Below, one piece after another: positions 18,599-61,478 of a stretch of DNA of 64,000 nt (positions are counted from its first letter, which is position 1; every line of letters begins with the position of its first letter). The DNA is taken from the sequence record OP744025. The stretch is one strand, 5' to 3'. This DNA comes from Escherichia phage A5-4. The notes beneath the pieces are model-generated. The model ran no database searches and was not told the origin of the DNA. It saw nothing but the letters and a program-made list of their open reading frames with translations. The translations under genes were made by a program, and so were the position numbers.

Positions 18599-18601
18599 TA
18601 G

Positions 18602-18630: not shown

Positions 18631-18658
18631 ATAACAAATCGACAAATGAGGCATAATC

Positions 18659-18961: not shown

Positions 18962-19122
18962 ATCCGCAAAATTTATCTTATGTAAACTGGCCCAATAAGG
19001 CTGAGAAGAAAGAAAACTTGAAACGTCTGGTTAACTTTTATCGTGAAGCTGGTCATAGTAAAGTAACAGCGGTTAAAATGGCAAAGCGCCACCTTAACAA
19101 GCCAAGTACTAAACTAATTTAA
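18958..19122 (+). CDS. small basic protein
   Basis: ATGA overlap with upstream gene; track ORF start 18934. Confidence 0.45.
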   Translation: MNPQNLSYVNWPNKAEKKENLKRLVNFYREAGHSKVTAVKMAKRHLNKPSTKLI

Positions 19123-19129
19123 AAACTTG

Positions 19130-19165
19130 TTGACGTTGGCTTGTGCCGTACCTATAATGGACGGC
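19130..19165 (+). promoter_or_regulatory. promoter with hairpin overlapping -10
   Basis: TTGACG, 17 nt, TATAAT inside GCCGT...ACGGC inverted repeat. Confidence 0.55.
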
Positions 19166-19193
19166 ATAGGCAAACGAAATAGGATTTATAGAA

Positions 19194-19400
19194 ATGAAAA
19201 AGAAAATTGTATATAATATTATTAGCTTTATCGCAACTATCCTCCTGGCTATTGCTGGTCTATCTTTGATTGTTGCAGTAGGATCTCTGTTTCCTGGGGC
19301 AATAAGTATTAGCATAGCTTTCGCCGCATTGTCTGTTTTTACAGGGTATGCAGGGATTAAAGTTACTTATTGGTCAGAAGATTACAAATATTCAAACTGA
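19194..19400 (+). CDS. small membrane protein
   Basis: two hydrophobic helices; cassette 19130-19165 upstream. Confidence 0.55.
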   Translation: MKKKIVYNIISFIATILLAIAGLSLIVAVGSLFPGAISISIAFAALSVFTGYAGIKVTYWSEDYKYSN

Positions 19401-19413
19401 ATTGAGGTGTAAG

Positions 19414-19563
19414 ATGTACAAGCTATTAACCTGGGAAACAGAATCATCGTCACCGATCAGCCGGACCTTTTTTGATTTGTGCACGGCTTACAGGCTGGCA
19501 AAGGGAGGGTATCATAAGGCCCAAATCATTGATGAATTTAATGTTATCCTTTATGAATTTTAA
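19414..19563 (+). CDS. small hypothetical protein
   Basis: track start 19348; ATG 19414 after GAGGTG preferred. Confidence 0.4.
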   Translation: MYKLLTWETESSSPISRTFFDLCTAYRLAKGGYHKAQIIDEFNVILYEF

Positions 19564-19610
19564 TCAATTCATATACTTAAAAGAAAGTTAGAAAAAGTTT
19601 TAAAAAGTGG

Positions 19611-19639
19611 TTGCAACAGGTATTGGATAGTAGTATAGT
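19611..19639 (+). promoter_or_regulatory. sigma70-like early promoter
   Basis: TTGCAA, 17 nt, TATAGT. Confidence 0.5.
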
Positions 19640-19692
19640 ACTTTCAACGGGGCGAGATGGCCCAAAACGAAAAAACTTGAAAGGTGATTATC

Positions 19693-19785
19693 ATGATGGC
19701 AATTTTCTTAATTTCTCTTCTGGTCGCTGTATGTTCTGCCACTGCTGCCGCTGTACTTTATGACACCCGCTACAATGAGGAATAA
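19693..19785 (+). CDS. small hydrophobic peptide (30 aa)
   Basis: promoter 19611-19639; AAGGTGA RBS; not in track. Confidence 0.3.
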   Translation: MMAIFLISLLVAVCSATAAAVLYDTRYNEE

Positions 19786-19790
19786 TAAAA

Positions 19791-20009
19791 ATGAATATTG
19801 TCAACATTACAGGTAAGACCGAGATCCTTAAGAATCTTGCGCCAGGTGAGTCCACCGTATGGATCTGCAAAGATGGCGAAGTAGAAAAACAAATGAGATT
19901 GTTTACCGCTATTTGTTGTCGGTTAAATATGAAAGTTACACAAATCCGATCGATGATTGTTAGTGTGGGAAACATTCCGACTGAATGCATAATTCTTACA
20001 AAGATTTAA
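19791..20009 (+). CDS. hypothetical small early protein
   Basis: ORF track; GAGGAA RBS. Confidence 0.5.
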   Translation: MNIVNITGKTEILKNLAPGESTVWICKDGEVEKQMRLFTAICCRLNMKVTQIRSMIVSVGNIPTECIILTKI

Positions 20010-20085
20010 AAATAGCTTTACAACAACGATAAAATCAGTACAATACAAATCAGGCAATAAAGCCAACTAAAGAAAGGTAAAGACC

Positions 20086-20325
20086 ATGCAAACTATTATC
20101 ACTAAATTTCTTCCTCCTACGAATACCCGTGGCGCTCGCATCAAAGCAAAATGTTGGTTGACAGATATCACTATCGCCTATCCGGTAGCCGAGATCAACG
20201 AAGCCCATAAACTGGCGGCAGAAGTGTTAATTACAAAATTGAAGATGACAACAGATATTGATTGGAAAATTGTTGCAAGTGGTGAAACACCGGACGGATC
20301 AGGTTATGCATTTATCATCAAATAA
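20086..20325 (+). CDS. hypothetical small early protein
   Basis: ORF track; AAAGGTAAAG RBS. Confidence 0.55.
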   Translation: MQTIITKFLPPTNTRGARIKAKCWLTDITIAYPVAEINEAHKLAAEVLITKLKMTTDIDWKIVASGETPDGSGYAFIIK

Positions 20326-20328
20326 TTG

Positions 20329-20384
20329 TTGACAACAGCAAAGTAAGCGCGTAGTATTCATTTTACAGGGGCGACAAGCGCCCC
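20329..20384 (+). promoter_or_regulatory. promoter + 5' stem-loop cassette
   Basis: TTGACA, 17 nt, TAGTAT, hairpin GGGGCG-ACAAG-CGCCCC. Confidence 0.6.
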
Positions 20385-20393
20385 GCTTATCAG

Positions 20394-20675
20394 ATGAGAC
20401 AAATCATGAAAATATCATTGGACGTTGCAATCAAGGCCATCGAATCCGGTTACACTCTGGTTAAGGACGATAAGGCTAAAATCGTGCATCACGTTAACAA
20501 GGAAACAGGCGAAAGCATGATCACATATAAAGCCGCCTACTTTCTCCAATCAGTAGCAGATCCGCGCCTGCAACGCCAGGTTACGGCGGCTATCGCTAAA
20601 AAATTATGTGCTTTACAGGGTACAAGTTTTAACGAGATCGCCCCGTGTTTTGATTGGTCAAGCTTGAAAAAATAG
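20394..20675 (+). CDS. hypothetical small early protein
   Basis: cassette 20329-20384 upstream; start 20394 or 20406 uncertain. Confidence 0.5.
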   Translation: MRQIMKISLDVAIKAIESGYTLVKDDKAKIVHHVNKETGESMITYKAAYFLQSVADPRLQRQVTAAIAKKLCALQGTSFNEIAPCFDWSSLKK

Positions 20676-20676
20676 T

Positions 20677-20733
20677 TTGACAATACGCAGTTATCTGGTA
20701 AAGTGTACTACATAGCGCGGAAATACTTCCCGC
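20677..20733 (+). promoter_or_regulatory. promoter + 5' stem-loop cassette
   Basis: TTGACA then imperfect hairpin GCGGAAATACTTCCCGC. Confidence 0.45.
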
Positions 20734-20752
20734 CATTAATGAGGATAATTTA

Positions 20753-20890
20753 ATGAAAACTTTCAACGCAACAGCCTCGACAATTGGTTATATTATTACA
20801 GTGCAAGCCGTAGATCTGGTAGCAGCAGCAAACAAGATTAAAAGAATGATCCCGCTAGGTAGTGAATTTTCCGTTTGGGAAGTAAAATAA
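20753..20890 (+). CDS. small hypothetical protein (45 aa)
   Basis: cassette 20677-20733 upstream; GAGGA RBS; not in track. Confidence 0.4.
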   Translation: MKTFNATASTIGYIITVQAVDLVAAANKIKRMIPLGSEFSVWEVK

Positions 20891-20893
20891 TTC

Positions 20894-20955
20894 TTGACAA
20901 TAGTTTGTTACTTGATAGAATGTATTTCGTAGGGCGGGGCAATGGAGCAACGCCC
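20894..20955 (+). promoter_or_regulatory. promoter + 5' stem-loop cassette
   Basis: TTGACA, 16 nt, TAGAAT, GTATTTCGTAGGGCGGGG...CGCCC. Confidence 0.55.
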
Positions 20956-20973
20956 ATTAATGAGGCTAGCATC

Positions 20974-21078
20974 ATGTTAGAGAAAATTTTCACGGTTGCA
21001 GTGGTTGGCCTGGCGTTATCGGTTGGAGTGGTTGCAACTATGGCTAATATGATCCTATCTTCCCACGGTATCGGTTAA
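20974..21078 (+). CDS. small membrane peptide (34 aa)
   Basis: track start 20875 inside promoter; ATG 20974 preferred. Confidence 0.35.
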   Translation: MLEKIFTVAVVGLALSVGVVATMANMILSSHGIG

Positions 21079-21090
21079 GAGAGACACATC

Positions 21091-21477
21091 ATGAAAACAG
21101 AAATCATTATTGAAATCATCAACGGTTACAAAGAGGCTTTTATCTTTGCTGAATCAGCCAGGAATCACGAAGGTGATTTTATAGATGACATGACTGATTA
21201 TGATTTTTCAGATCAAGCCCAGCAACGGATCATTCGTGACGTGGCGGCTTTTTGTGACGCCAATGATGCCGCTATCTCTGAGGCAATGAGCGACGGCGCA
21301 ACAGCCAACCAGATCGGGAATGATTTACATTTTACCCGTAACGGTCACAGCGTAGGCTTTTGGGATCGCCCTGAGATATACACTACTAACACGGCTAACC
21401 GTTTGACCAATGCCGCTAAATTTATGCCAAACGTGTCAGCCTACATTGGGAAAGATAATCTGATTTATATTGAATAA
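21091..21477 (+). CDS. hypothetical early protein
   Basis: 128 aa; AAGAGAGA RBS. Confidence 0.55.
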   Translation: MKTEIIIEIINGYKEAFIFAESARNHEGDFIDDMTDYDFSDQAQQRIIRDVAAFCDANDAAISEAMSDGATANQIGNDLHFTRNGHSVGFWDRPEIYTTNTANRLTNAAKFMPNVSAYIGKDNLIYIE

Positions 21478-21483
21478 AAAGTA

Positions 21484-21538
21484 TTGACAAGCTGAATCAA
21501 CCTGACAAGATGTATCACATAGGGGCGATAAACGCCCC
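21484..21538 (+). promoter_or_regulatory. promoter + 5' stem-loop cassette
   Basis: TTGACA ... CAAGAT GTATCACAT, hairpin GGGGCG-ATAAA-CGCCCC. Confidence 0.55.
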
Positions 21539-21558
21539 ATAACAGAAAGGGTAATCTT

Positions 21559-21753
21559 ATGACGTTAGCAACATGTACCGGATCAAAAATTGCTTGCTTT
21601 GAGTTTATGGAAGACTACCACACGACCGCAATCACTGACCAATATATTACAGTGATCACGCGTGACGGTATCGCCTGGCATGTTCCGGTTTATGATGGGG
21701 ATACCTATGAAGTCACCGACAGCGACGGCAATACAGCTATCTTTGTTGTCTAA
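21559..21753 (+). CDS. hypothetical small early protein
   Basis: cassette 21484-21538 upstream. Confidence 0.55.
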   Translation: MTLATCTGSKIACFEFMEDYHTTAITDQYITVITRDGIAWHVPVYDGDTYEVTDSDGNTAIFVV

Positions 21754-21765
21754 GGGGGAAACACT

Positions 21766-21993
21766 ATGCACAATAACATCATTACCGATCGTGCCGCCAC
21801 TATGCGCCCTGGCGATCGGGCACGTTTACAGGTTGGCGCTTATCCGTTCCCTACTTATGACTTTTGCAAGGTGACGGCAGTCGAAAACAATCCCTTTGAT
21901 CCTGATACCGTGATCATCTGGTACGAAGGAAGGGGAAATAAGTATGAAGATGTTTTATGGCGGGATGAGCATATCAACATTATTCGTTACTAA
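21766..21993 (+). CDS. hypothetical small early protein
   Basis: GGGGGAA RBS; ORF track. Confidence 0.55.
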   Translation: MHNNIITDRAATMRPGDRARLQVGAYPFPTYDFCKVTAVENNPFDPDTVIIWYEGRGNKYEDVLWRDEHINIIRY

Positions 21994-22111
21994 TCGCCAC
22001 CTAACAGCCTAAATAGTAGGAGGTAATGCAATCCCCTACTCAATGAGAATGGAGCGCCCTGGCTTATGCTGGGGCGTTTTATGTTGTATGGAAATAATTT
22101 AGAAAATAAGC

Positions 22112-22168
22112 TTGACGCCGGGAATGTTAGCGCGTATAGTTTATCACATAGGGCGGCAATAGTGCCGC
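22112..22168 (+). promoter_or_regulatory. promoter + 5' stem-loop cassette
   Basis: TTGACG, 17 nt, TATAGT, TTATCACAT, hairpin GCGGCA-ATAG-TGCCGC. Confidence 0.6.
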
Positions 22169-22188
22169 TCATAATTGGAGTAGAGATC

Positions 22189-22362
22189 ATGGCAATTCTG
22201 GCGAAAGATGTAAAAGTAGGTATGACCTTTAATGATTGTGAAGTTGTCTATGTTGCCGCGCACGGCGACGGTATCATTACCATTGAAACAGAACACTTTG
22301 ATCGAGATTGTGGCGAGATGGAATATTTTTCTTGCGAGTATCATGAAAACGATGAGTTTTAA
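22189..22362 (+). CDS. small acidic protein (57 aa)
   Basis: track start 22066 spans promoter; ATG 22189 after GGAG preferred. Confidence 0.45.
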   Translation: MAILAKDVKVGMTFNDCEVVYVAAHGDGIITIETEHFDRDCGEMEYFSCEYHENDEF

Positions 22363-22366
22363 ACTA

Positions 22367-22421
22367 TTGACACTGTAAGTAATTGTGTTAATATTTTTGT
22401 GTAGGGCGGCAATGTTGCCGC
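22367..22421 (+). promoter_or_regulatory. promoter + 5' stem-loop cassette
   Basis: TTGACA, 16 nt, TAATAT, hairpin GCGGCAA-TG-TTGCCGC. Confidence 0.6.
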
Positions 22422-22442
22422 TCACTGACTGGAGCTATCACC

Positions 22443-22844
22443 ATGACCTTTACAATCACCTCTTACACTGACGTTGCCAGCATTGCTAAAACTTTCGGCC
22501 CTGAAGCCCTTAAATATGCGGTATCCAATGGTAATCTGACAAAAGAGGAATGTTATCTGATTGGAAGCTGTAAACGTTGGGCGGTATCTCGTAACATCGA
22601 GATTGAAAACGTAAATGATGGCAACATCGAATATAGCGTTGATGCAGTATTCCAAGTTGTTGATTTAGGTGGTATCTATAATACCAATCTTAATGATGTG
22701 CGTATCGTTCGCACTGGCTTTGGGGCTTATGATGTTCCAGTTCGTGAAGCTATGGAAAAAGGTTATATTAATCCAGCCATTTTAAGCATGATCATGACTG
22801 AGGCCAAACAACGTAACGAGATACGGGCTATCCTGGGCCTGTAA
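22443..22844 (+). CDS. hypothetical early protein
   Basis: cassette 22367-22421 upstream; GGAG RBS. Confidence 0.6.
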   Translation: MTFTITSYTDVASIAKTFGPEALKYAVSNGNLTKEECYLIGSCKRWAVSRNIEIENVNDGNIEYSVDAVFQVVDLGGIYNTNLNDVRIVRTGFGAYDVPVREAMEKGYINPAILSMIMTEAKQRNEIRAILGL

Positions 22845-22865
22845 TGAAATATTAATGGAAAACTA

Positions 22866-22917
22866 TTGACACGGATCGTCAATATGCTAATATTTATCAC
22901 GTAGGGCGGCAACGCCC
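22866..22917 (+). promoter_or_regulatory. promoter + 5' stem-loop cassette
   Basis: TTGACA, 16 nt, TAATAT, TTATCACGTAGGGCGGCAACGCCC. Confidence 0.55.
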
Positions 22918-22943
22918 CAGATTAATAAAAATAGGAAATAAAT

Positions 22944-23150
22944 ATGACTACTTCAATGATCAGATCTTCCGACATTAAAAAGGCTTTATCTGCATTGCGT
23001 TATCATCATAGAATGAAAGTAATCAACGATGAGAGCTATCTAGATTCATCGTTAGAAAGCGATACGTTGGAAGCCATTTCAAAATTATCTGATTTGCATA
23101 AACGCATGACCGAAAGCAACCGATCCGACTTCATAGGGGGCGAAATATGA
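22944..23150 (+). CDS. hypothetical small early protein
   Basis: cassette 22866-22917 upstream. Confidence 0.55.
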   Translation: MTTSMIRSSDIKKALSALRYHHRMKVINDESYLDSSLESDTLEAISKLSDLHKRMTESNRSDFIGGEI

Positions 23151-23407
23151 GCATTGCAATGTTAATCAATACCGTAGAAGAGGCGAAAGCATTAAAGTTA
23201 CGTGTTGAACTGATTGATCAGCCAGGTGGAGATCTCCTTGTACAAATCTATCCCCCAAAGGATGATTCTGGCGCTTATGATTGGTGCTACTCTGACACGT
23301 TCGAACAAGTAGACATTAAAGCAATAACATCATTTATCAATAGGGCTATACTTGAGCAAACGATAGAACTTAACGGGATGTTAAAAACACCCTGGCACAT
23401 TTACTGA
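23147..23407 (+). CDS. hypothetical small early protein
   Basis: ATGA overlap; followed by terminator 23419-23444. Confidence 0.55.
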   Translation: MSIAMLINTVEEAKALKLRVELIDQPGGDLLVQIYPPKDDSGAYDWCYSDTFEQVDIKAITSFINRAILEQTIELNGMLKTPWHIY

Positions 23408-23418
23408 GTTCGACAAAA

Positions 23419-23444
23419 GGGCTTGACTTGTTCAGCCCTTTTTT
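23419..23444 (+). terminator. rho-independent terminator
   Basis: GGGCTTGACTTGTTCAGCCC followed by TTTTTT. Confidence 0.7.
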
Positions 23445-23584
23445 GCTATTCTTATCAAACGGGCGGCACCTGGGAACAGGGGGGAGGTAATCACTGGACG
23501 ACTCCGCTATATAGTGATAGTAAATAGCTATCAATAATCTCCAAAAATAAAATAAAACCTATCGAGTCTTTACAATTCTTTCTA

Positions 23585-23613
23585 TTGACACAACAACCGC
23601 ATTACAGTATTAT
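23585..23613 (+). promoter_or_regulatory. strong sigma70-like promoter with no ORF downstream
   Basis: TTGACA, 17 nt, TATTAT, then ATCTCGTAGGGCAGCG start region; no ORF of 60 aa or more for about 350 nt. Confidence 0.55.
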
Positions 23614-23886
23614 TTATCTCGTAGGGCAGCGAAGCAGTGATGTAAAGTAGTTACTCTATGATGTAAGTTCTGAGAAGTCGAATCCGATAAAGTATCAGAA
23701 AGTTTCTAAGTTTTCGAATCGTCCAGATGAAAAAGGCTGGCAAGTGTTGAGAAAGGGCACGTTGAGTAAGTCCTGAACAGGGGCGCTCCTAGACACCTTC
23801 TACTGAGATTGCGATCGAAGTGTTAAACTGTGAGAAACGATAAAGAGTACCAGGAAAGAAAGAAGTAAAAGAAGTGAAAAAGATTG
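23614..23886 (+). ncRNA. candidate non-coding transcript (promoter-driven, ORF-free)
   Basis: lies between terminator 23419-23444/promoter 23585 and next promoter 23887; only stop-rich frames; no structure or homology evidence. Confidence 0.25.
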
Positions 23887-23916
23887 TTGACACGAAGGTA
23901 AGTTTTGTACTATTAT
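23887..23916 (+). promoter_or_regulatory. sigma70-like early promoter
   Basis: TTGACA, 18 nt, TATTAT, ATCTTGTAGGGCA. Confidence 0.5.
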
Positions 23917-23960
23917 CTATCTTGTAGGGCAAACTTCAAGAACATTAAAAAGGGTACAAA

Positions 23961-24236
23961 ATGTTACAGCTTAACGCCAAATTAGACAAAGAAATCACTG
24001 AGTTTTGGGATATGGTAGTGGCTACAGATGTTGACGGTGTAGCAAGTCCTTACCTCAATAACATTGAGTATCATAATGTTGCAGCTATGAATGCAGAATA
24101 CGCAGAAGAAGGCGGCGCGGATAAGTTTGCTAAAAGCAACGGTTTCACTGATGCTAACGACATGATGCAATCAGTTTTGTGGCAAGCCCAGGAAGATTTT
24201 GAAGAAAAAACTCTTGAATTCGCCAGACGTTCATAA
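23961..24236 (+). CDS. hypothetical small early protein
   Basis: promoter 23887-23916 upstream. Confidence 0.55.
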   Translation: MLQLNAKLDKEITEFWDMVVATDVDGVASPYLNNIEYHNVAAMNAEYAEEGGADKFAKSNGFTDANDMMQSVLWQAQEDFEEKTLEFARRS

Positions 24237-24291
24237 TAGAATAATCAAACGGGCCGAAAGGCCCACTAATTGACCTAACAGGATTAACATC

Positions 24292-24561
24292 ATGAATCGC
24301 ATCGACCAGCTTAAAGTAGTTCAGCATATGGCTTACCGTATCCTTGAAGTTCAGAAAGGGAGCAAAAAAGAAGTATGTGAGAAGGCTTATAAGGTATTCA
24401 GCCACAAAGCTGATGATTGGAAGTTGCAGAAAGTAAAAAAGGCCGATATCCTGGGATACCTTGAAGAAGAGATCCGCATTGCAGACCAAAAACAGATTCG
24501 TCGTGATGAAGCAGAACATAACCAGGCCTGGCAAGAATGGTTTAAAGGCTACACTAAGTAA
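24292..24561 (+). CDS. hypothetical small early protein
   Basis: ORF track; hairpin 24251-24264 upstream. Confidence 0.5.
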   Translation: MNRIDQLKVVQHMAYRILEVQKGSKKEVCEKAYKVFSHKADDWKLQKVKKADILGYLEEEIRIADQKQIRRDEAEHNQAWQEWFKGYTK

Positions 24562-24624
24562 AATTGAAAACGGGGGGCCATATGGTCCCTTTGTAAATAT
24601 TCCATTAATTTACAATTCTCCCTA

Positions 24625-24654
24625 TTGACAAGAAAGTCAATTTTGCAGTATAGT
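24625..24654 (+). promoter_or_regulatory. sigma70-like early promoter
   Basis: TTGACA, 18 nt, TATAGT. Confidence 0.5.
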
Positions 24655-24694
24655 TATATCTCTAGCAGCAAACAACAAAACAAAGGACAACGAC

Positions 24695-25114
24695 ATGAAC
24701 ATCAAATCAACTAATCCGGCTTACTCTTTCGATAACGCTTTTTGTCACGGTAGCGCCGCCAAAGGTTTTGAAATTGATGGTAAACTGGTTATCGTCAATG
24801 TTGATGGGGAAGAGGTTGCAGTTTATCCAGTGGCAGACGTTAAAAGCCGTTTACAATGTCGCATGGACGTTAATGAATACCGCCTTGATCCGGTTCGTGT
24901 CGTTGCCCTGGTCCTGGAAGAAGAAATTAAAGCAATGCAGCACGGTAATAAGTTTATTGGTGATGCACAGGACAACATGAAAGTAAGCCGCCACAAAGTT
25001 AATGAAGCACTGAAAGATTTTGGCTTTAAAGACCTGATTATCAAACGTGATGAAAAATTCCGCTTTCGTAATGATCTGGCAAATCGCTACTATGAAATCT
25101 ATGAAGCACTTTAA
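24695..25114 (+). CDS. hypothetical early protein
   Basis: 139 aa; promoter 24625-24654; followed by terminator. Confidence 0.6.
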   Translation: MNIKSTNPAYSFDNAFCHGSAAKGFEIDGKLVIVNVDGEEVAVYPVADVKSRLQCRMDVNEYRLDPVRVVALVLEEEIKAMQHGNKFIGDAQDNMKVSRHKVNEALKDFGFKDLIIKRDEKFRFRNDLANRYYEIYEAL

Positions 25115-25131
25115 GAGGTAAGACAACAAGG

Positions 25132-25153
25132 GGCCGCAATAGCGGCCTTTTCT
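25132..25153 (+). terminator. rho-independent terminator
   Basis: GGCCGC-AATA-GCGGCC followed by TTTTCT. Confidence 0.7.
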
Positions 25154-25154
25154 A

Positions 25155-25183
25155 TTGACACCTGCTAACCATTCCTTTAATAT
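25155..25183 (+). promoter_or_regulatory. sigma70-like early promoter
   Basis: TTGACA, 17 nt, TAATAT, GCATCTTGTAGGGCA. Confidence 0.55.
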
Positions 25184-25234
25184 GCATCTTGTAGGGCAAG
25201 CAATAACGCAAGCCCACAAATAGGACAAACCATC

Positions 25235-49172: not shown

Positions 49173-49655
49173 TTAACCTCCTTCATCTTCAGTTGACCAG
49201 TACCCATTAACTTTTTTCCAAAGCCTTTGGTTATCTGATCCCCTGAATCTTTTAGTTGTAGGTTTGTTTTCATTATACTTACCGTCCATGATTAAGTCAA
49301 CGTGTTTCTTTATTTCCTCATCCAAGTCTTCAAAAAGATACCCTGTCCACACCATGATATCTTTACTCTCACCAAAGCACAACTTTACTTCCTTGATGAT
49401 TCTTTTTACAATATCAATATTCTCAGGGTCAAGAGGTTCTCCACCCATAATTGACAATCCACTGATAAAGTTTCGAGAAAGATCTTTTTTCAATCTCTCC
49501 ATATCTTCATCTGTGAATTCTTTTCCATACCTGTATGACCAAGCCTTTTGGTTAAAACAGCCTTTGCACTTATGGCTGCATCCACTAACCCACAGGGAGG
49601 TTCTTACACCCTCCCCGTTGATGAAGTCTGTGCTTTCATACCCGCAGATGTTCAA
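49173..49655 (-). CDS. nrdG: anaerobic ribonucleotide reductase activating protein
   Basis: radical-SAM CSHKCKGC near N-terminus; directly downstream of nrdD with 4-nt overlap. Confidence 0.85.
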   Translation of the reverse strand: MNICGYESTDFINGEGVRTSLWVSGCSHKCKGCFNQKAWSYRYGKEFTDEDMERLKKDLSRNFISGLSIMGGEPLDPENIDIVKRIIKEVKLCFGESKDIMVWTGYLFEDLDEEIKKHVDLIMDGKYNENKPTTKRFRGSDNQRLWKKVNGYWSTEDEGG

Positions 49656-51730
49656 ACGTGTTTTTCCCTTTGTAAGACCTCCTGCATCTTACCCTTATTA
49701 TAAGGTCTTGCATTCGGAGCCGATAAATAACCAGAAACCCGTCGGATTACTGAAATTGTTCCTTCTTCTTTATTCCCGCAACAAGGGCATTCAAAACCTT
49801 TTGCTGTTGCATGGAATTCACCACTAAAGTTACACTTAAAGCACTGGTCCACAGGTTGATTGACACCAAAGTAAGGTATCATTTTATAACCGTAATCGAT
49901 CAATGTTTCAAGTGCCTTCATATTATTTTTCAAGTTTGGCGTTTCAACATAACCAATATTACCGCCTGAACTTATTGTTGCGAAACCGGATTCATACTTC
50001 CACTTAGCGAAAGGATCTGAATGTTCCCAAACAGGTACATGAAAAGAGTTTGTAAGGTAGTCTCGCTTAATGGCTTCTGGATATTTTTCCTTCAGCTTTG
50101 TGGCGAAACGATAGCACAGACTCTCCGCAGGTGTTCCATAAAGACTGAAAGAAAGGTGTGAACGATCTCTGAACTCGTCACACTTAAGTTTCATATGATT
50201 AAGGATCATTATCGCTAAACCCTTATGCTTTTGCCCCAAGATAATATCAACTGCTTCCGATAAGCCTACATATCCAATACTGATCGATGCGTACCCGTCA
50301 TAGAATAACTTACTAATCTTTTCATCAGCGCCCAACCTTGCTAAAGCACCCTCCATAAACAGGGTTGGGTTTTGAGATGCTTTCACATTCTTGAGTCTAT
50401 TGACACGAACCATGTGAGATTCGTATGCCTTTTCCATATGCTCGTCAAGGAAAGCGTAAAAATCACCACCTTTTGCTTTGTACTCTGCTGCAATCAGCGG
50501 TAAATTTATAGAGACAACACCTAAATTGAATCTACCATCATACTTCTCTCCATGTTCTGTCGTAAATTTGGAAAGGAAGCTCCTACAACCCATACTTGTA
50601 ACTTTCCCATCTGAAGATCCAGTAACCTCTTTATTTAATGGCACAGAGATGAAGTCAGGATAGATCCTTTCAACACAGCACTGCATTGCCATTTGTTTAA
50701 GGTCATAATTAACATCACCAGGTTTCAGGTTTACACCATCTTGCAAAAAGAAGACAACCTTCGGAAAAACTGGAGTTACCTTATCCTTGCCAAGCCCCTC
50801 AGTATGGACCTTTAGATAGTTTTTGGTAATCATTCTACCAAACTCTGAAGTTTCAAGACCCATACTGATCGTAATGAAAGGCGATTGACCGTTAACACTC
50901 ATTAAAGTATTAACCTGATAAACCAGAGTCTGCATTGCATCATACACATCTCGGTCTGTCATTTCCATTGCTAAAGATTCATTAGGTTTTCCGATCTTTT
51001 CTAAAAACTCGATATTCTTTTTGTGACTCATCTCAACATATGTTTTCAAACCCTCATCGATATGAGCACATGTTTGTCCTCCGTATTGACTGGATGCTAC
51101 AGCCTGAATGATTTGAGTCAGAACTGTTGTTGCAACACCAATCGACTTAGGTTTTTCGATCTTTGCATTTCCAATCTTAAAACCATTTTCAAGCATGTCC
51201 CGATAGTTAACAAGACAACAGTTAGTTAATGGACTAACCAAATAATCCAAGTCGTGAATGTGACCATAACCTTCATTGTGCCAAGCAGCGAGGTCTTTTG
51301 GCAAGATCTGATTAATACTGACATGCTTGCTTAAAATACCTGCCAGCAAGTCCCGATGAGTATTTACCAAATTGCTAGGTTTGTTTGCATTCTCACGAGT
51401 AAATTCTTCAGCCGTTTGATCCAAAAATCCGCTAATATCTGAATAAAGTTTACCTTTGCCTTCACGAACTGAATCCCGATCATGACGGTATTCAATATAG
51501 CATCTGGCAGCATCTTGAAGATTTTTCTGACTCATTAAGGTATTCTCAACAACCTTATGAATCTCTTCTACAGATATACGATCTTTATCTTCAATCTGAC
51601 TAACGACTTCAGTAATGAGTTTATCAACATCGGCTTTAGTGCCTGCGGATAAAAGAGCGCCCCGAAGGGCTGCTCCGATCTTATCCGTGCACAAGGTTTC
51701 TTCACGCCCGTCACGTTTTGCAATAATCAA
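49652..51730 (-). CDS. nrdD: anaerobic ribonucleoside-triphosphate reductase
   Basis: 692 aa; C-terminal Zn ribbon CFKCNFSG...CPCCGN and glycyl-radical motif RRVSGY. Confidence 0.9.
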   Translation of the reverse strand: MIIAKRDGREETLCTDKIGAALRGALLSAGTKADVDKLITEVVSQIEDKDRISVEEIHKVVENTLMSQKNLQDAARCYIEYRHDRDSVREGKGKLYSDISGFLDQTAEEFTRENANKPSNLVNTHRDLLAGILSKHVSINQILPKDLAAWHNEGYGHIHDLDYLVSPLTNCCLVNYRDMLENGFKIGNAKIEKPKSIGVATTVLTQIIQAVASSQYGGQTCAHIDEGLKTYVEMSHKKNIEFLEKIGKPNESLAMEMTDRDVYDAMQTLVYQVNTLMSVNGQSPFITISMGLETSEFGRMITKNYLKVHTEGLGKDKVTPVFPKVVFFLQDGVNLKPGDVNYDLKQMAMQCCVERIYPDFISVPLNKEVTGSSDGKVTSMGCRSFLSKFTTEHGEKYDGRFNLGVVSINLPLIAAEYKAKGGDFYAFLDEHMEKAYESHMVRVNRLKNVKASQNPTLFMEGALARLGADEKISKLFYDGYASISIGYVGLSEAVDIILGQKHKGLAIMILNHMKLKCDEFRDRSHLSFSLYGTPAESLCYRFATKLKEKYPEAIKRDYLTNSFHVPVWEHSDPFAKWKYESGFATISSGGNIGYVETPNLKNNMKALETLIDYGYKMIPYFGVNQPVDQCFKCNFSGEFHATAKGFECPCCGNKEEGTISVIRRVSGYLSAPNARPYNKGKMQEVLQREKHV

Positions 51731-53621: not shown

Positions 53622-53885
53622 TCACACTTCTTTGAACGTTGCAAGCACTGTTGATTCAATTTCGTAATAATTTTCACGAACTTTGATATCTTCATTCAAT
53701 GCCCAAGGTACACCAAGGTCAGTGCTTACATATTGGAGATCATCTGATCCATCATAAACAGAATTCTGTTCAAACACAAAACCTTCCACTGCAAAAGTAC
53801 AAATAAGTTTTTTCACTTTTAGAATCTCCAGGTTAAGGGCCTTTCGGCCCAGCTTATTAAAGTTCGAAATCGAAGTCAGATGCAC
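53622..53885 (-). CDS. hypothetical protein
   Basis: ORF track. Confidence 0.5.
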
Positions 53886-54954
53886 TTACTGAAGAGTCAA
53901 CCTGACCAGACAGATATTGACCATTTTCTAGTTCCTGTGGAGTCACCTGGACGTTTTTAGTATTCAGGTGGCTATTGATCCAAGGGATCGGGTTCTTCAG
54001 TGGCTTACCGATGAAACTATCTAAACCAACTGCTCGCATACGTTGGTCAGCCATATAATCTACGTATTGCCACAGGATCTCTTTATTCAGTCCAACCATC
54101 GAACCATCTTTGAACAGGTATTCTGCCCAATCACGTTCTTGCTGTCGTGCCTGTAAGAACAACTCACGGGCTTCATCTTTACAATCTTCTGCGACTCGTG
54201 CAATAAGGTCACCTTCACGACCACTCTGCATTTCGTTCAGAATATACTGAGTACCCGACAAATGCAATGCTTCATCACGAGCGATCAGTTCGATAATGTT
54301 GGTGTTGCCAGTCATGATACTACGCTCACCAAATGCAAACGAACATGCAAAACTCACATAGAAGCGGATTGCTTCCAAAGCATTAATACTGTGCATACAC
54401 AGATACAGTGCTCGTGCATGTGCATAACGATCGACTGGCAAGTTCAAAGCGTAACGACTGTTCAACTGGAATAAATCGTCATACAGCTTCGTAACTGCAT
54501 CTGCACGTTCCAGAATTTCTGGAGTTTTCATGATCTCATCAAGAATTGCAGAAGGATCACTAAATACATTTCGAATAATGTGTGTATATGAACGGCTGTG
54601 GATTGTTTCACTGAAACCCCAAGTCTCAATCCAAGTTTCCAAAGCTGGGTCAGAAACAATTGGAAGTAATACTGCATTCGGGCCACGCCCTTGAACTGAA
54701 TCAAGCAATGTTTGATACTTAAGGTTACTAATGAAAATATGTTTTTCATGATCAGGTAATCCCATAAAGTCAATTCGGTCACGGGTCACATCGATTTCTT
54801 CCGGTCGCCAGAAGAATGCCAACTGCTTTTCTGTCAGCTTTTCAAATTTGTTGTGTTTTTGCTTGTCGTAACGAGAAACGTTAACAGACTCACCAAAGAA
54901 CATCGGTTGTTCCATGAAATCAAACTGGTTTTTATTAAAAGTCGTGTAGCTCAC
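53857..54954 (-). CDS. nrdB: ribonucleotide reductase class Ia beta subunit
   Basis: [31 protein letters not shown] closely resemble E. coli NrdB. Confidence 0.9.
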
Positions 54955-55009
54955 TTATTATCTCCTCTTCGTTAATCTGAAAACCATTATACCTGAACTT
55001 ACCAAGAAA

Positions 55010-55351
55010 TCAATAGTTATTTCTTAAAATTTCAATTCCGTATCGCTTAAAAACTTCCTTCGCTGCCATAAACTTCTGTGCTGCACTTGGATTTGAAGTA
55101 TGAACAAACAGAACAGCAGGATACAGGATCGGCTTCCCAAATACAAGCTTTTCTTCTAACATTTCTAAACAACGGTAGCCTTCTTTTGAATCTTCACCAA
55201 GGTCATTGTCGAAGTGCCATTCTGTTACCCGACGATACATTTTATTGGGGTCATCAAGGAACTCGATAAACTGGTCAGAATTTTTAAACCAGATGGCATC
55301 ATCATGCCCGTAATCTTTTGGATCTCTCAAATCATCAAGCCAAATCTTCAT
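55010..55351 (-). CDS. hypothetical protein (inserted between nrdA and nrdB)
   Basis: own promoter at 55381-55408 and AGGAGG RBS. Confidence 0.55.
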   Translation of the reverse strand: MKIWLDDLRDPKDYGHDDAIWFKNSDQFIEFLDDPNKMYRRVTEWHFDNDLGEDSKEGYRCLEMLEEKLVFGKPILYPAVLFVHTSNPSAAQKFMAAKEVFKRYGIEILRNNY

Positions 55352-55380
55352 CTTTTCCTCCTGTCTCGTTTATGTGGTTT

Positions 55381-55408
55381 ATTATACGGATTACCTTACC
55401 GAAGTCAA
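55381..55408 (-). promoter_or_regulatory. sigma70-like promoter inside nrdA-nrdB insert
   Basis: minus strand TTGACT, 16 nt, TATAAT, then AGGAGG RBS and ATG at 55351. Confidence 0.55.
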
Positions 55409-55413
55409 TAAAA

Positions 55414-55433
55414 AACCGCCCCGAAGGGCGGTT
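55414..55433 (-). terminator. terminator hairpin AACCGCCCCGAAGGGCGGTT (copy 1)
   Basis: perfect 8-bp stem, CGAA loop, T-run on minus strand; identical copies at 55639 and 61459. Confidence 0.65.
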
Positions 55434-55437
55434 AATT

Positions 55438-55626
55438 TTAATTGTACTTGTTGAGAATGTTAAACATATCTTTTGCAATATATTTATTGTCTCGACAACC
55501 AGCAAGGTTGTTACGAAGTGCAGCCATATAGATCTCTGTGCCGCAACCTGGGTAGGATGTGCCGAATCTTTTTGCCTGTCGTTTAAATGTCCAACGATCA
55601 ATAAAGAACCACGAGATAAATTTCAT
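55438..55626 (-). CDS. hypothetical small protein (inserted between nrdA and nrdB)
   Basis: 62 aa; flanked by identical hairpins AACCGCCCCGAAGGGCGGTT; GAGGAGG RBS. Confidence 0.5.
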   Translation of the reverse strand: MKFISWFFIDRWTFKRQAKRFGTSYPGCGTEIYMAALRNNLAGCRDNKYIAKDMFNILNKYN

Positions 55627-55638
55627 ATTCCTCCTCAG

Positions 55639-55658
55639 AACCGCCCCGAAGGGCGGTT
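55639..55658 (-). promoter_or_regulatory. hairpin AACCGCCCCGAAGGGCGGTT (copy 2) in 5' leader of small ORF
   Basis: identical hairpin directly upstream of GAGGAGG RBS; no T-run on minus strand. Confidence 0.5.
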
Positions 55659-55666
55659 ATTTATTG

Positions 55667-57925
55667 TCACAGTTTACAAGCACCTGATTCGCAGCCTTCA
55701 TCCTCTTCATCTTCACCATCACGAGTTTCTTGATAGTAAACAGTCTTCAGGCCAATCTTGTAAGCATACATCAGGTCACGCAGTACAATCTTAATCGGCA
55801 GTTTGCCACCTGGATAATCCCAAGGTTTGTAGAAGGTATTGGTCGAGATCGACTGGTCAATAAACTTCTGGATGATAGCCATCAGGTTAAGATAAGCTGT
55901 CGGTCCGTTCATATCCCATTTGTACTCGTATACCACACCTTCCTCACCAACACCAGGAACCAGCGTCGGAAGCATACCCGCAGGTGACTTCTTAAACGTC
56001 ACTGGACCACGAGGAGGTTCAATGCCGTTGGTAGAGTTAGTGATCTGGCTCGATGTTTCACAAGGCATCATTGTGGACAACGTTGAGTTACGTAATCCGT
56101 GCAATGCGATATCCAGACGCAAACTTTCCCAATCTTGTTGCAATTCTGCGGTATGCAACTGATCAACTTCTTTCTTGTAGCGATCGATAGGTAAGATGCC
56201 ACGAGAATAAGATGTTTGATCGTACCACTCACAAGCACCACGCTCTTTCGCCAACTGAACAGAAGCTTTCAGCAGGTAGAACTGGAATGCTTCCGCGAGT
56301 TTATGAACTTCATTGGCAGCTTCCGGCGAACTATATTTAAGTCCACGTTTAGCCAAGTAATACGCCAAGTTAGTCCAGCCAATACCTAAAGTACGACGCA
56401 GTAACGTTTTCTCTGCTGCAAGAACAGGGTAGTTCTGATAATCAAGCAGGTTATCAAGAGCACGTACCGTGATCATAACAGGTTCTTCTAAATCTTCAAG
56501 CTTCTCGATCTTTCCGAGGTTGATTGCTGATAAAGTACACAGTGCAACTTCACCAGAATCTTTCGGGTCCTTAATGTTATTGATCGGAGCCGTAGGTAAT
56601 GCAATTTCCATACACAGGTTAGACTGCTTAATCGGAGCCACTTCAGGAAGGAACGGACTGTTGCTATTGCAATGGTCAACGTTCTGAATATAAATACGAC
56701 CCGTCTGGCTACGTTCTTGAGCTAAACGAGTGAAAGCATCAGTCGCTTCAAGCTCTTTGCGAGGAATGGAAGGATCTGCTTCCAATTTCTCATACAGTTC
56801 TGCAAATGCTTCTTGATCCGAGAAGAAGTATTTATACAGATCACCGTTTGCTACGTTTGGATGGAAGAAACTGATCTTGCCACCTTTCTGTAAGCGAGTA
56901 TAGAAGAACTTGTTGATCTGAACACCATAATCAACATGTCGTGCACGGGTGCTTTCAGTACCACGGTTGTTCTTCATTACGATCAGGTTTTCAAAGTCCC
57001 AGTGCCAAATCGGGTAGAAGTAGTTAGCTGAAGCTTTACGCAGACCACCTTGAGATGCCCAACCTAAAGATTCTTGATACATTCGAACAATGCCAACCGT
57101 ACCTGCATGTTTAACTTCCCCGCCGCGAATAGGAGCGTCCTGTCCACGAATAGCACCAAAGTTCAAACCGATACCTGCTCGCTGTGCTGCATACTTACCT
57201 TGTGCTTCAACTGCTGCAAAGATCTGGTTAATATCATCACCGGACTCAATCAGTACACAAGAACTGAATTGTCGAGTCGGGGTTCGTACCCCACCCATAA
57301 TCGGAGTAGGCAGAGAAACCTTCATGGTAGAAACCATATTGTACAGATCAATCACTTTTTGTAAACGCTTCTTAGGATCTTCTTTACTCATCAAACACAT
57401 TGCGATCAGCATCAGTGCTGTCTGAGGGGATTCAAAGATTTCACCTGTTACACGATCCTTGACCAAATACTTATCTTCATACTGACGCATAGCTGCGTAA
57501 GTGTAATCAAAATCACGGTCATGATCGATAACTGTATCTAAGAATTCAATCTCTTCCTTCGTATAATCTGAAATCAGATGTTCATCGTATTTACCGCGAG
57601 CCACAGTCATAAGAATGTGAGCATACAGTGGACGAGGTTCAAAACCACCATAAGCCTGCTTACGCAGTTTAAACAGAAGCAGACGTGCTGCTGGATACTG
57701 ATAGTTTGGACTTTCTACACTAATTAGGTCCGCTGCGGACTTGATCAGGGTATCGTGGATCGCGTCTGTTTCTACACCATCATACATCTGAATCTGAGAT
57801 TTCATCAGGATATCAGAAGGACTTACATCATTAACCCCTTCACAAGACCAAACTACAACACGGTTTATTTTCTCAGCTTCGAATTTCTCTACAGAACCAT
57901 TACGCTTACGAACAGTAATACCCAA
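55667..57925 (-). CDS. nrdA: ribonucleotide reductase class Ia alpha subunit
   Basis: 752 aa; N-terminal ATP-cone-like region, C-terminal CESGACKL tail; strong resemblance to E. coli NrdA. Confidence 0.9.
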   Translation of the reverse strand: MGITVRKRNGSVEKFEAEKINRVVVWSCEGVNDVSPSDILMKSQIQMYDGVETDAIHDTLIKSAADLISVESPNYQYPAARLLLFKLRKQAYGGFEPRPLYAHILMTVARGKYDEHLISDYTKEEIEFLDTVIDHDRDFDYTYAAMRQYEDKYLVKDRVTGEIFESPQTALMLIAMCLMSKEDPKKRLQKVIDLYNMVSTMKVSLPTPIMGGVRTPTRQFSSCVLIESGDDINQIFAAVEAQGKYAAQRAGIGLNFGAIRGQDAPIRGGEVKHAGTVGIVRMYQESLGWASQGGLRKASANYFYPIWHWDFENLIVMKNNRGTESTRARHVDYGVQINKFFYTRLQKGGKISFFHPNVANGDLYKYFFSDQEAFAELYEKLEADPSIPRKELEATDAFTRLAQERSQTGRIYIQNVDHCNSNSPFLPEVAPIKQSNLCMEIALPTAPINNIKDPKDSGEVALCTLSAINLGKIEKLEDLEEPVMITVRALDNLLDYQNYPVLAAEKTLLRRTLGIGWTNLAYYLAKRGLKYSSPEAANEVHKLAEAFQFYLLKASVQLAKERGACEWYDQTSYSRGILPIDRYKKEVDQLHTAELQQDWESLRLDIALHGLRNSTLSTMMPCETSSQITNSTNGIEPPRGPVTFKKSPAGMLPTLVPGVGEEGVVYEYKWDMNGPTAYLNLMAIIQKFIDQSISTNTFYKPWDYPGGKLPIKIVLRDLMYAYKIGLKTVYYQETRDGEDEEDEGCESGACKL

Positions 57926-60790: not shown

Positions 60791-61429
60791 TTACTCTTTC
60801 CCCTCTGAGAGTTTGATAATTAATTTTGCAGTTTCAGTTAGCTTACCATTAACGTTTTCAACGTCGAAATCTCTAGGTCGTGCACTTTCAGGGAAATTCT
60901 CAGAGTAAATATAATTACGAGAATCACCTTCAAAAGTTAATTTATTACCTGTTCGTGGATCAGTACGATGTAAACGGATCAGGGTGTAATCACCATTTAC
61001 CGCTTTAACTACCGGAACACTTTCATGAATAAATCCACCATCAGAGCTAATAAATGTACAAGTATAACCATCCATTTCCATACTTTTCGCAATATCTTTA
61101 ACACGCTTGGCAAGAGCAACACCGAAGTATTCTTCCCCGAAGAGAGGCTTCGCAACATTCTCCGAGATGTGGATCAGCCAGTTACGTGGGGACACTTGTT
61201 TACCTGCAACATTAAAATATGGTTGAGGTACTTCTTTATAATCACGGTGGTAAAGTGCATCCCACAGTTCACGATTAATACCTGCAATACGAATAGCTAG
61301 ATCGATAAGGGAACCTTTAAACTCCACATGAATACCCACGTTGTTGCCTACGGTAACTAACTGAGCGATCTCACCAGCAAGAGCATCTTTACCAGAAAAA
61401 GCAGGACCATTCAAATTGATAAATTTCAT
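60791..61429 (-). CDS. deoxynucleoside monophosphate kinase-like P-loop kinase
   Basis: NGPAFSGKD P-loop at N-terminus; 212 aa. Confidence 0.6.
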   Translation of the reverse strand: MKFINLNGPAFSGKDALAGEIAQLVTVGNNVGIHVEFKGSLIDLAIRIAGINRELWDALYHRDYKEVPQPYFNVAGKQVSPRNWLIHISENVAKPLFGEEYFGVALAKRVKDIAKSMEMDGYTCTFISSDGGFIHESVPVVKAVNGDYTLIRLHRTDPRTGNKLTFEGDSRNYIYSENFPESARPRDFDVENVNGKLTETAKLIIKLSEGKE

Positions 61430-61458
61430 ATTAATCTCCTCTCAGTTTCACAATAAAA

Positions 61459-61478
61459 AACCGCCCCGAAGGGCGGTT
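61459..61478 (-). terminator. terminator hairpin AACCGCCCCGAAGGGCGGTT (copy 3)
   Basis: followed by T6 on minus strand, 30 nt upstream of dNMP kinase start. Confidence 0.65.

Follow-up and report, generated by a model that had tools for sequence, protein, structure and literature searches.

In Escherichia phage A5-4 (OP744025), nrdA and nrdB, the genes for the alpha and beta subunits of a class Ia ribonucleotide reductase (RNR), are separated by two small open reading frames (ORFs), a pair of identical hairpins, and a near-consensus promoter, which raises the question of how this spacer was assembled. The initial annotation of the locus read it as a mobile or recombination-acquired cassette of two genes ending at the two hairpins. 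We compared the locus, as it stands in a 64-kb window (the whole stretch of DNA analyzed; all coordinates are positions within it), with approximately 45 related loci from GenBank records, 31 IMG/VR loci, and contigs reached via the protein database. The comparison indicates that the spacer is probably a gene slot that was filled stepwise and subdivided by re-used regulatory modules, rather than a single mobile cassette.

The hairpin pair encloses one of the two spacer genes

All elements of the locus lie on the minus strand. nrdA (55667..57925; 752 aa, identified as an ORF and from the annotation of Escherichia phage A7_1) forms the upstream boundary and ends in ...CKL-TGA, and hairpin hp2 (55639..55658; 8-bp stem, C(UUCG)G) starts 8 nt later. 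ORF62 (55438..55626; 62 aa) follows, and then hairpin hp1 with its T-run (55410..55433 by terminator scan; stem-loop itself 55414-55433) and promoter P1 (TTGACT-N16-TATAAT, 55381..55408; 11/12 consensus by promoter scan). The 113-aa gene, cREC (55010..55351; ORF with a Pfam PF20274 match, its start in the context AGGAGG-N5-ATG), lies beyond P1; a second promoter, P2 (TTGATT-N16-TATAAT, 54986..55013; 10/12 consensus by the same scan), and nrdB (53857..54954; 365 aa, GTG start preceded by GAGGAG) complete the locus, with nrdB as its downstream boundary.

The two ORFs, the identical hairpins at 55414 and 55639, and the TTGACT promoter are thus all present as first described. The geometry assigned to them is not: the hairpin pair flanks ORF62 alone, and cREC lies outside it, downstream of the hairpin at 55414. 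Nor is the hairpin confined to the locus, where it does occur twice, since the exact 20-mer AACCGCCCCGAAGGGCGGTT is found three times in the window (55414-55433, 55639-55658, and 61459-61478, the last about 5.8 kb away), against 0 copies expected by chance. They repeat one palindrome in direct orientation, and their flanks are unrelated (AAAT-hairpin-CTGA versus AATT-hairpin-TTTT).

The spacer is uniform among close relatives and variable at genus depth

The closest relative over the region is A7_1 (97.5% identity), followed by UPEC06, A73, W70, and vB_EcoM-LTH01 (about 95%); these five are unclassified Vequintavirinae of 137-145 kb. Over 1,901 nt the six genomes of this clade are colinear, without any indel, and all of them carry both ORFs. 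The same two genes are kept by a metagenomic sister lineage, recovered via the protein database (IMG/VR queried with cREC returned Seunavirus-type contexts only), in which NrdA and NrdB are 90.7% identical to the window proteins, cREC 75%, and the ORF62 counterpart, ORF63, 61%. The uniformity that would speak against an inserted cassette is therefore what the five close relatives and the sister lineage display, and it breaks down at genus depth.

At that depth, the A7_1 core proteins are 70-91% identical to those of Cronobacter phage CR3 (genus Certrevirus), and the window NrdA is 76% identical to that of CR3. DNA polymerase identity is 87% to CR3, 82% to SSBI34, 63% to Seunavirus, and 53% to rV5-like phages.

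The states found among these relatives bear out the suggestion that the spacer is a plasticity hotspot. Where NrdB is at most 60% identical, nrdA and nrdB lie 0-46 nt apart, and FBKp34 has only a hairpin between them (41 nt, without a promoter). Relatives with NrdA and NrdB about 75-80% identical show three further arrangements: nrdA-hairpin-promoter-nrdB without any ORF (97-121 nt; SSBI34 and contigs L014 and L016); nrdA-ORF56/58-hairpin-promoter-nrdB, with an ORF62 homologue only (CR3, L017, L018); and nrdA-hairpin-ORF218-ORF56-hairpin-promoter-nrdB (P7_Pc, and phiTE with a decayed ORF218). ORF218, a 217-aa ORF between nrdA and the ORF62 homologue (L008:3583-4236; P7_Pc orf243), matches the HNH-endonuclease-annotated family phrog_953 (E=1e-66), which roams through 2,217 places in 1,234 phage records and occurs at this spacer only in P7_Pc and phiTE; in phiTE (L030) only a decayed 75-aa piece of it is left. 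The sister lineage has the order nrdA-hairpin-ORF63-hp1-P1-cREC-P2-nrdB, with a different first hairpin (GCTCCC-TTTTA-GGGAGC-TTTT), and this clade has nrdA-hp2-ORF62-hp1-P1-cREC-P2-nrdB. Two contigs with the sister-lineage layout, L072 and L075, hold in addition a 51-aa hydrophobic ORF (MQDVEKELLEMKKKMRNKTIVALSLSLSFMAITLVLLTAKVTSLLTTGVW; L072:5847-5999) between P1 and cREC, whose stop lies 1 nt upstream of the cREC start; it is a further independent insertion, at the P1-cREC junction. An extra 53-aa ORF in L067 proved to be a frameshifted nrdB.

These states bear directly on whether ORF62 and cREC arrived as one cassette. The identity of two 20-mers 225 nt apart, the variability of the locus, and the arrangement in P7_Pc and phiTE, where the hairpin pair does enclose two genes (the HNH-like ORF and the ORF62 homologue), would all suit such an event. 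Besides the contrary geometry in the window, however, Certrevirus has ORF62 homologues without cREC; none of the cREC homologues in 347 phage records has ORF62 with it at another locus, and ORF62 does not occur beyond this lineage; and the sister lineage carries both genes behind a different upstream hairpin. cREC is flanked by a duplicated promoter instead of hairpins, and no transposase, integrase, homing endonuclease, or target-site duplication was found at the locus. Neither ORF62 nor cREC contains a mobility domain of the kind expected of a transposon, insertion sequence, miniature inverted-repeat transposable element, or homing cassette. We therefore consider a single two-gene cassette highly improbable. 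What stands of the acquisition idea is that at least one spacer gene was acquired by recombination.

The junction at which ORF56 is present in CR3 and absent from L014 reads CTGTAAG/... versus ...AAATAG/TAAACC (slash, junction), a 2-3-nt microhomology beside stop codons. A derivation of L014-type empty sites from a P7_Pc-like state by hairpin-by-hairpin deletion was rejected: the left flank in L014 matches the flank of the downstream hairpin, and the CR3/L014 junction is TAAG/ATAG microhomology.

The segment 54400-56300 is also mosaic among close relatives. Against UPEC06 and LTH01, differences per 100 nt number 0-2 in nrdB (54400-54900) and 0-3 in nrdA (beyond 55800), and 3-10 across 54900-55800; in the comparison with A7_1, it is nrdB itself that diverges. 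This pattern points to recombination breakpoints flanking the inter-nrd segment.

ORF62 appears to be an old resident of the spacer

ORF62 has a strong Shine-Dalgarno (SD) sequence, and its codon changes within the clade are 7-8 synonymous versus 2 nonsynonymous. Homologues include the 56-aa ORF of CR3, orf242 of P7_Pc, and others (33% identity; pairwise blastp E=3e-8). Because of the SD, the synonymous excess, and the homologues, ORF62 can be regarded as a real gene, evidently under purifying selection. The CR3 homologue (L007:4233-4403; NC_017974 about 118640-118807) is unannotated in RefSeq, which leaves a 276-nt nrdA-nrdB gap there.

A profile of ORF62 run against 5.8 billion proteins retrieved eight clusters only, and all those that could be placed lie between nrdA and nrdB; the same slot holds the homologues of CR3, P7_Pc, phiTE, L017, L018, and further contigs. 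This distribution indicates that the family is narrow, is found only in the nrdA-nrdB spacer, and is ancestral there. An earlier view of ORF62 as an orphan gene, taken from a phage tblastn search that reached the five closest relatives only, was overturned by reading the CR3 and P7_Pc junctions. Pfam gave only sub-threshold noise for ORF62 (Herpes_TK_C, a zinc finger), PHROG one weak match to a family of unknown function, and a search of solved structures by sequence no match for ORF62 or cREC. An AF2 model of ORF62 has three helices at low confidence (predicted local distance difference test, pLDDT, 66).

cREC occurs here without its usual partners

The 113-aa protein matches Pfam PF20274 (cREC_REC) with 66 bits, the gathering score being 27 (E=5e-18), over profile positions 1-84 of 88; it also matches phrog_1479, and PF20274 is carried by all 54 of its database homologues. 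It retains every family-invariant residue (WLDDxR, DxDLG, H-T/S-x-NP) and the features that define the family: a receiver (CheY-like) fold with DD after strand 1, D-x-D after strand 3, and H-T/S-x-N-P. The family is characterized by never being associated with a histidine kinase, and none is present here. Within the clade, 14-18 synonymous versus 0-2 nonsynonymous codon changes indicate strong purifying selection.

The family is predicted to be metal-independent and to open 2',3'-cyclic phosphates on RNA or ADP-ribose derivatives, and it is typically linked to RNA ligases, sirtuins, Nudix enzymes, and kinases, including in an rV5-type neighborhood described by Iyer, Burroughs, Aravind and co-workers (PMC7824862, PMC9503650). 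A literature search for cREC experiments returned comparative genomics only, and no solved structure for the family was found. In 4MG, rV5_ev168, and Salmonella phage SEW_6S, cREC directly follows or overlaps RNA ligase 1 (Rnl1), with genes for phosphoesterase, Pnkp, Sir2, and DNA ligase next to it; its position in Phapecoctavirus and Justusliebigvirus is about 1 kb upstream of a phosphatase and Rnl1. No homologue of Rnl1, Pnkp, phosphoesterase, or Sir2 was detectable in the window or the complete A7_1 genome. The association with RNA-repair and ADP-ribose genes, a contextual rather than a defining feature of cREC_REC, is thus missing at this locus, where cREC lies between nrdA/ORF62 and nrdB. 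With its active site intact, cREC may resolve cyclic-phosphate ends on behalf of host enzymes, or it may break down a small molecule of the cyclic-phosphate type.

cREC is 73-74% identical to 4MG-type, 69-72% to PVP-SE1-type, and 64% to rV5 proteins, and the two Seunavirus subgroups (4MG-type and PVP-SE1-type) are 70-75% identical to each other. The complete CR3 genome contains no cREC, all Certrevirus-type loci examined lack it in the spacer, and only this clade and the sister lineage have it there. Since cREC is as near to the Seunavirus subgroups as these are to each other, and the genome backbone is far nearer to cREC-less Certrevirus, the favored origin is horizontal transfer, in which cREC alone would have come from a gene pool of the Seunavirus/rV5 type.

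Alternatively, cREC could have moved, inside the lineage, out of an ancestral RNA-repair cluster (Rnl1-cREC-Sir2) that was then lost from this clade and Certrevirus. The cluster is indeed widespread in the same subfamily (Vequintavirus, Seunavirus), and the 69-74% identity of cREC to Seunavirus is not far above the 63% of DNA polymerase, cREC being a well-conserved small enzyme. Relocation nevertheless needs a translocation and the independent loss, at least twice, of a cluster of several genes; CR3 and A7_1 are both without any cluster component, and the genome backbones are far more distant than the cREC proteins. We regard it as unlikely.

Several records, including UPEC06 (MW250786), JLBYU08, APECc02, ESCO37, and others, rV5-like records among them, label cREC "RNA ligase 1 and tail attachment protein", a name apparently taken over from the neighboring Rnl1 gene of other phages.

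The two promoters resemble a single ancestral promoter

P1 shares with the single nrdB promoter of CR3 and L014 the non-consensus context ATCCG-TATAAT-nn-ACCACA. The alignment of P1 with the Certrevirus nrdB promoter scores 23, a value reached by 0 of 2000 constrained shuffles. P2, which lies directly upstream of nrdB, has a -35 box that overlaps the cREC stop codon (TGA inside TTGATT), and is conserved in the sister lineage. Compared with the single Certrevirus promoter-leader, the window P2 was equaled by 0/2000 shuffles and the sister-lineage P2 by 2/2000; the similarity between P1 and P2 was matched by 2/2000. Unrelated strong promoters of the window scored about zero in the same comparison, these controls having no SD/ATG segment.

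These results indicate that P1 is orthologous to the single nrdB promoter of Certrevirus and that P2 is a paralogue of P1. Because both resemble the single ancestral promoter, the simplest reading is that cREC was inserted together with a duplication of the promoter-leader, before the clade and the sister lineage split. P1 probably drives cREC, and P1 and P2 would serve as near-consensus sigma70 promoters for independent early expression of cREC and nrdB.

hp1 appears old and hp2 a recent copy

On the gene strand the 20-mer reads AACCGCCC-UUCG-GGGCGGUU, with a predicted fold energy of -15.1 kcal/mol per copy; hp2 as gene-strand DNA (55658..55639) is AACCGCCC-TTCG-GGGCGGTT. The complete A7_1 genome likewise contains the 20-mer exactly three times. 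At three exact copies per 145-kb genome, a genome-wide terminator family was ruled out.

The copies differ in their surroundings. hp1 runs from the ORF62 stop (TAA-AATT) through the 20-mer and TTTT-A into the TTGACT of P1; its six-T run (55415-55410) includes the last two stem bases. In both hp1 and hp3 (61459-61478), the terminal UU of the stem extends to UUUUUU-A-UUG, the form of an intrinsic terminator. hp2 lacks this feature: its tail is CUGAGGAG, with no U-tract, so that the terminator scan did not report it on the gene strand. Within the spacer, a T-run follows only the copy at 55414, and only this copy therefore resembles an intrinsic terminator; hp1 would be the terminator-like site that closes an nrdA-ORF62 transcript. 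The 20-mer and T-run occur at the orthologous site, directly before the nrdB promoter, in CR3, P7_Pc, phiTE, L014, L016, L017, and the sister lineage, and across the six clade genomes the hp1 stem is invariant and its loop variable. By this distribution hp1 is orthologous across genera and appears old.

hp2 has a different background. It adjoins the ORF62 SD, with 2 nt before GAGGAGG (55630-55636; context CT-GAGGAGG-AAT-ATG). Beyond the 20-mer, hp2 continues as CTGAGGAGGAATATGAAATTTATC, and hp3 as TTTTATTGTGAAA-CTGAGAGGAGATTAATATGAAATTTATC; common to both are the 20-mer, CTGAG, and the 15-mer AATATGAAATTTATC, start codon included, which occurs in the 64 kb only at 55615 and 61418 (0.01 expected). 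The hp3 module (61418..61478) comprises the 20-mer, a T-run, an SD, and the ATGAAATTTATC start of a gene homologous to deoxynucleoside monophosphate (dNMP) kinases (phrog_139). This protein begins with MKFINLNGPA in the window and with MKVINLNGPA in the sister lineage, which marks ATGAAATTTATC as native to the dNMP-kinase-like gene. ORF62 begins with the same four codons (MKFI), and its orthologues begin MILTIKWF or MTVLWWF. From the shared 20-mer, CTGAG, and 15-mer, the native MKFI of the hp3 gene, and the unrelated sister-lineage hairpin after nrdA, hp2 would be a recent, clade-specific copy of the hp3 module (hairpin, ribosome-binding site (RBS), and four codons), without the T-tract.

The reported identity of the two spacer hairpins holds in the window and A7_1 and not in UPEC06, LTH01, A73, and W70, where the nrdA-proximal copy has changed to AACCACCC-TTTG-GGGTGGTT, a compensatory G-C to A-U change; A73 and W70 have an extra A-U to G.U change, paired only in minus-strand RNA. 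Hairpin loops vary within the clade (UUCG, UUUG, UUCU). The tolerance of the stem for G-C to A-U and of the loop for UUUG or UUCU indicates selection on structure rather than on exact sequence. As there is only one independent compensatory event, together with one G.U change, this is modest evidence that the hp2 structure has been kept by selection. Without a U-run and abutting the SD, hp2 is more likely a structural or stabilizing element that is read through. One possible role is protection of processed nrdA mRNA on its 3' side; alternatively, hp2 may be a neutral leftover of the copying. The compensatory change speaks for a function of some kind.

Identical hairpins could also arise by convergent selection for an optimal C(UUCG)G terminator, the hp2/hp3 flanks then being alike by coincidence, through the use in both of a strong RBS and of the common start ATGAAA. 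Loops of the C(UUCG)G type are reportedly exceptionally stable, and such hairpins are reported from phage intercistronic regions (Tuerk et al., 1988). In CR3, P7_Pc, and the sister lineage, moreover, the 20-mer or its 16-mer core turns up again at several sites, orthologous as well as non-orthologous, with diverged flanks. Yet in the window the identity runs on into CTGAG and the 15-mer from RBS to codon 4, the N-terminus of ORF62 departs from all its orthologues exactly over those codons, and the stem and loop changes within the clade show that exact sequence is not what selection holds. Convergence is accordingly quite unlikely, and copying of the hp3 module remains the preferred origin of hp2.

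Related hairpins were seen at two other places in the window. The core GCCCTTCGGGGC occurs at 51659-51670 inside the nrdD coding sequence (N-terminal ...GAALRGAL...), followed by CTCTTTT, and is conserved in A7_1; it could be a chance occurrence or an internal attenuator. A hairpin shorter by one pair, AAACCGCC-TTCG-GGCGGTTT, at 30176-30195 has T8 after it on the minus strand and GTGTTTAT (5 T in 8) on the plus strand, and is a possible bidirectional terminator. The window nrdD (49652-51730) is intact; that of the sister lineage is split into two ORFs (L074:12638-14980, L075:12638-15488), and in L075 a 169-aa ORF with a weak HNH_3 match (E=0.0075) lies between the halves, a probable intron or homing-endonuclease insertion. 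An Rfam scan of the entire 64 kb found no family at gathering score, hence no tRNA genes in the window; CR3 has 18 tRNAs elsewhere in its genome.

A stepwise history of the spacer

In the history we consider probable, the common ancestor shared with Certrevirus would have had a small ORF62-family gene, hp1, and a sigma70 nrdB promoter in the spacer, and the small gene would subsequently have been lost in some relatives. In the ancestor of this clade and the sister lineage, cREC, most likely from a Seunavirus/rV5-type RNA-repair cluster, would then have been inserted between P1 and nrdB, with duplication of the roughly 60-nt promoter-leader to give P1-cREC-P2. Finally, in the ancestor of the six genomes, a module of about 45 nt from hp3, consisting of the hairpin, the RBS, and four codons (ATGAAATTTATC) minus the 13-17 nt that hold the T-tract, would have overwritten the nrdA terminator and the 5' end of ORF62. 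The copying in of this module would be why two identical hairpins now flank ORF62.

In the resulting arrangement, transcripts through nrdA are expected to pass hp2, a stable stem with no U-tract, into ORF62, which would be translated from its strong, unoccluded SD, and to end at hp1. Transcription would re-initiate at P1 for cREC and at P2 for nrdB. The cREC product would act as a metal-independent phosphoesterase on linkages of the 2',3'-cyclic-phosphate or cyclic ADP-ribose-phosphate type, opening them without its usual RNA ligase, kinase-phosphatase, and sirtuin partners.

Several points weigh against this reconstruction. The ancestral position of ORF62, with three losses, comes from parsimony, and the choice between horizontal acquisition and relocation of cREC from identities and from parsimony over two complete genomes. 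The ORF56 junction is microhomology rather than hairpins, so not every event used regulatory modules. P2 is only modestly similar to the ancestral promoter, and shared sigma70/SD constraints may account for some of the similarity. Terminator and promoter function, and read-through at hp2, are predicted from consensus features only. The activity of the cREC family is itself a prediction, its members being said to "remain experimentally uncharacterized" (PMC9503650).

Comparison with known modular systems

The nearest parallel is found in the promoter-early stem-loop (PeSL) cassettes of T4-type phages, in which modules of stem-loop, sigma70 promoter, and SD flank accessory ORFs, recombine, and form mini-circles (Arbiol et al. 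2010, PMC2839356; Comeau et al. 2014, PMC4122927). hp1 and P1 together have this composite layout (TAA-AATT-hairpin-TTTT-A-TTGACT-N16-TATAAT-...AGGAGG-ATG), a stem-loop upstream of the -35 box being one of the five described subclasses. Two promoters enclose cREC here, versus a single promoter in L014, L016, and CR3. Similarly, hairpins enclose ORF62 here and ORF218-ORF56 in P7_Pc, versus a single hairpin in L014, L016, and SSBI34, with the microhomology junction of CR3/L014 ORF56 falling outside this pattern. A module would likewise have been copied between loci, and GC-rich GGGG/CCCC-type stems are typical. The differences are that the phage belongs to the Vequintavirinae rather than to T4-like phages, that the nrd-locus hairpin has 3 copies per genome, and that the module which hp2 would have from hp3 carries an RBS and four codons, its T-tract lost and no promoter included.

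A more abundant set of similar modules lies elsewhere in the window. In a small-ORF array at 12282-25234 on the plus strand, 12 of 29 intergenic regions (14 of 29 in A7_1) have a sigma70-like promoter, then a GC-rich stem-loop, then an SD; examples are GCGGGGAATGGCCCCGC and GGGGCGAnAAnCGCCCC, each found twice. The array hairpins differ in sequence, and the order is promoter then stem-loop. The array may be a PeSL-like multi-copy cassette family in a Vequintavirinae phage.

PeSL-type homologous recombination could have shaped the nrd spacer: small circles carrying a gene and a terminator/promoter cassette would integrate at, or excise from, a resident cassette and duplicate the part in which crossover occurred. 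Promoter-leader repeats around cREC that are single-copy in relatives, the cassettes of the array, and the experimental demonstration of the mechanism in RB49 and phi1 (PMC2839356) all speak for it. Set against this are the 3 hairpin copies per genome and only 4 stem-loop-then-promoter composites in the 64 kb, the ORF56 indel junction, which holds microhomology and no cassette, the shortness of the repeats (20-60 nt) and the divergence already seen between P1 and P2, and the fact that these phages are not T4-type. We consider this mechanism a tentative possibility.

As for the site itself, Wilson and Edgell reportedly described in 2009 a free-standing homing endonuclease gene, mobE, in the nrdA-nrdB region of T4. 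The T4 region resembles the present one in that the same inter-subunit spacer of a class Ia RNR is the landing site and in the HNH-family ORF of P7_Pc and phiTE; it differs in that the window spacer has no endonuclease and no homing signature, its cargo being a small orphan protein and cREC.

With the rV5-type cREC neighborhoods the locus shares the PF20274 family (62-74% identity to the rV5, 4MG, and PVP-SE1 proteins). There, cREC is translationally coupled to a T4-like RNA ligase 1, near Sir2, kinase, MazG, and phosphoesterase genes (PMC7824862, PMC9503650); here it stands alone under its own promoter, inside the RNR operon. The hairpins, for their part, have the canonical form of C(UUCG)G terminators in their 8-bp GC-rich stem and in the U-run after hp1 and hp3; hp2, without a U-run and abutting an SD, departs from it, and the loop is not conserved in the clade.

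A further-reaching and rather doubtful proposal starts from cREC as a stand-alone gene in the RNR operon, with a promoter of its own, under strong purifying selection, in a phage without RNA ligase, Pnkp, or sirtuin. It would hold, first, that cREC is an independent destroyer of a cyclic-phosphate small molecule (2',3'-cyclic nucleotides, or an immune signal of the cyclic ADP-ribose or cyclic oligonucleotide type) that acts in counter-defense or nucleotide salvage, analogous to the 2H-family Acb1, and not as an RNA-repair accessory, and, second, that the PeSL-like cassettes of Vequintavirinae, RBS-plus-start-codon modules included, are portable recombination sites outside the T4 superfamily.

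Implications

Two annotation corrections follow from this work: ORF56 of CR3 is unannotated, and cREC is misnamed in several records. The locus is an ordinary but clear and well-resolved example of the known plasticity of phages in gene addition, and it does not overturn current understanding. It offers a clean, datable series of states, from an empty spacer to a small gene, an added enzyme gene, and a replaced terminator, with side branches that gained an HNH-like gene or a 51-aa ORF. It shows how the addition of accessory genes re-uses short modules (terminators, promoters, RBSs) as junctions, a behavior documented experimentally only for T4-type phages. cREC proteins are widespread among phages, and experiments have assigned them no function; this clade, a natural background with cREC but no RNA ligase, Pnkp, or sirtuin, would therefore be a convenient system for probing what cREC does.

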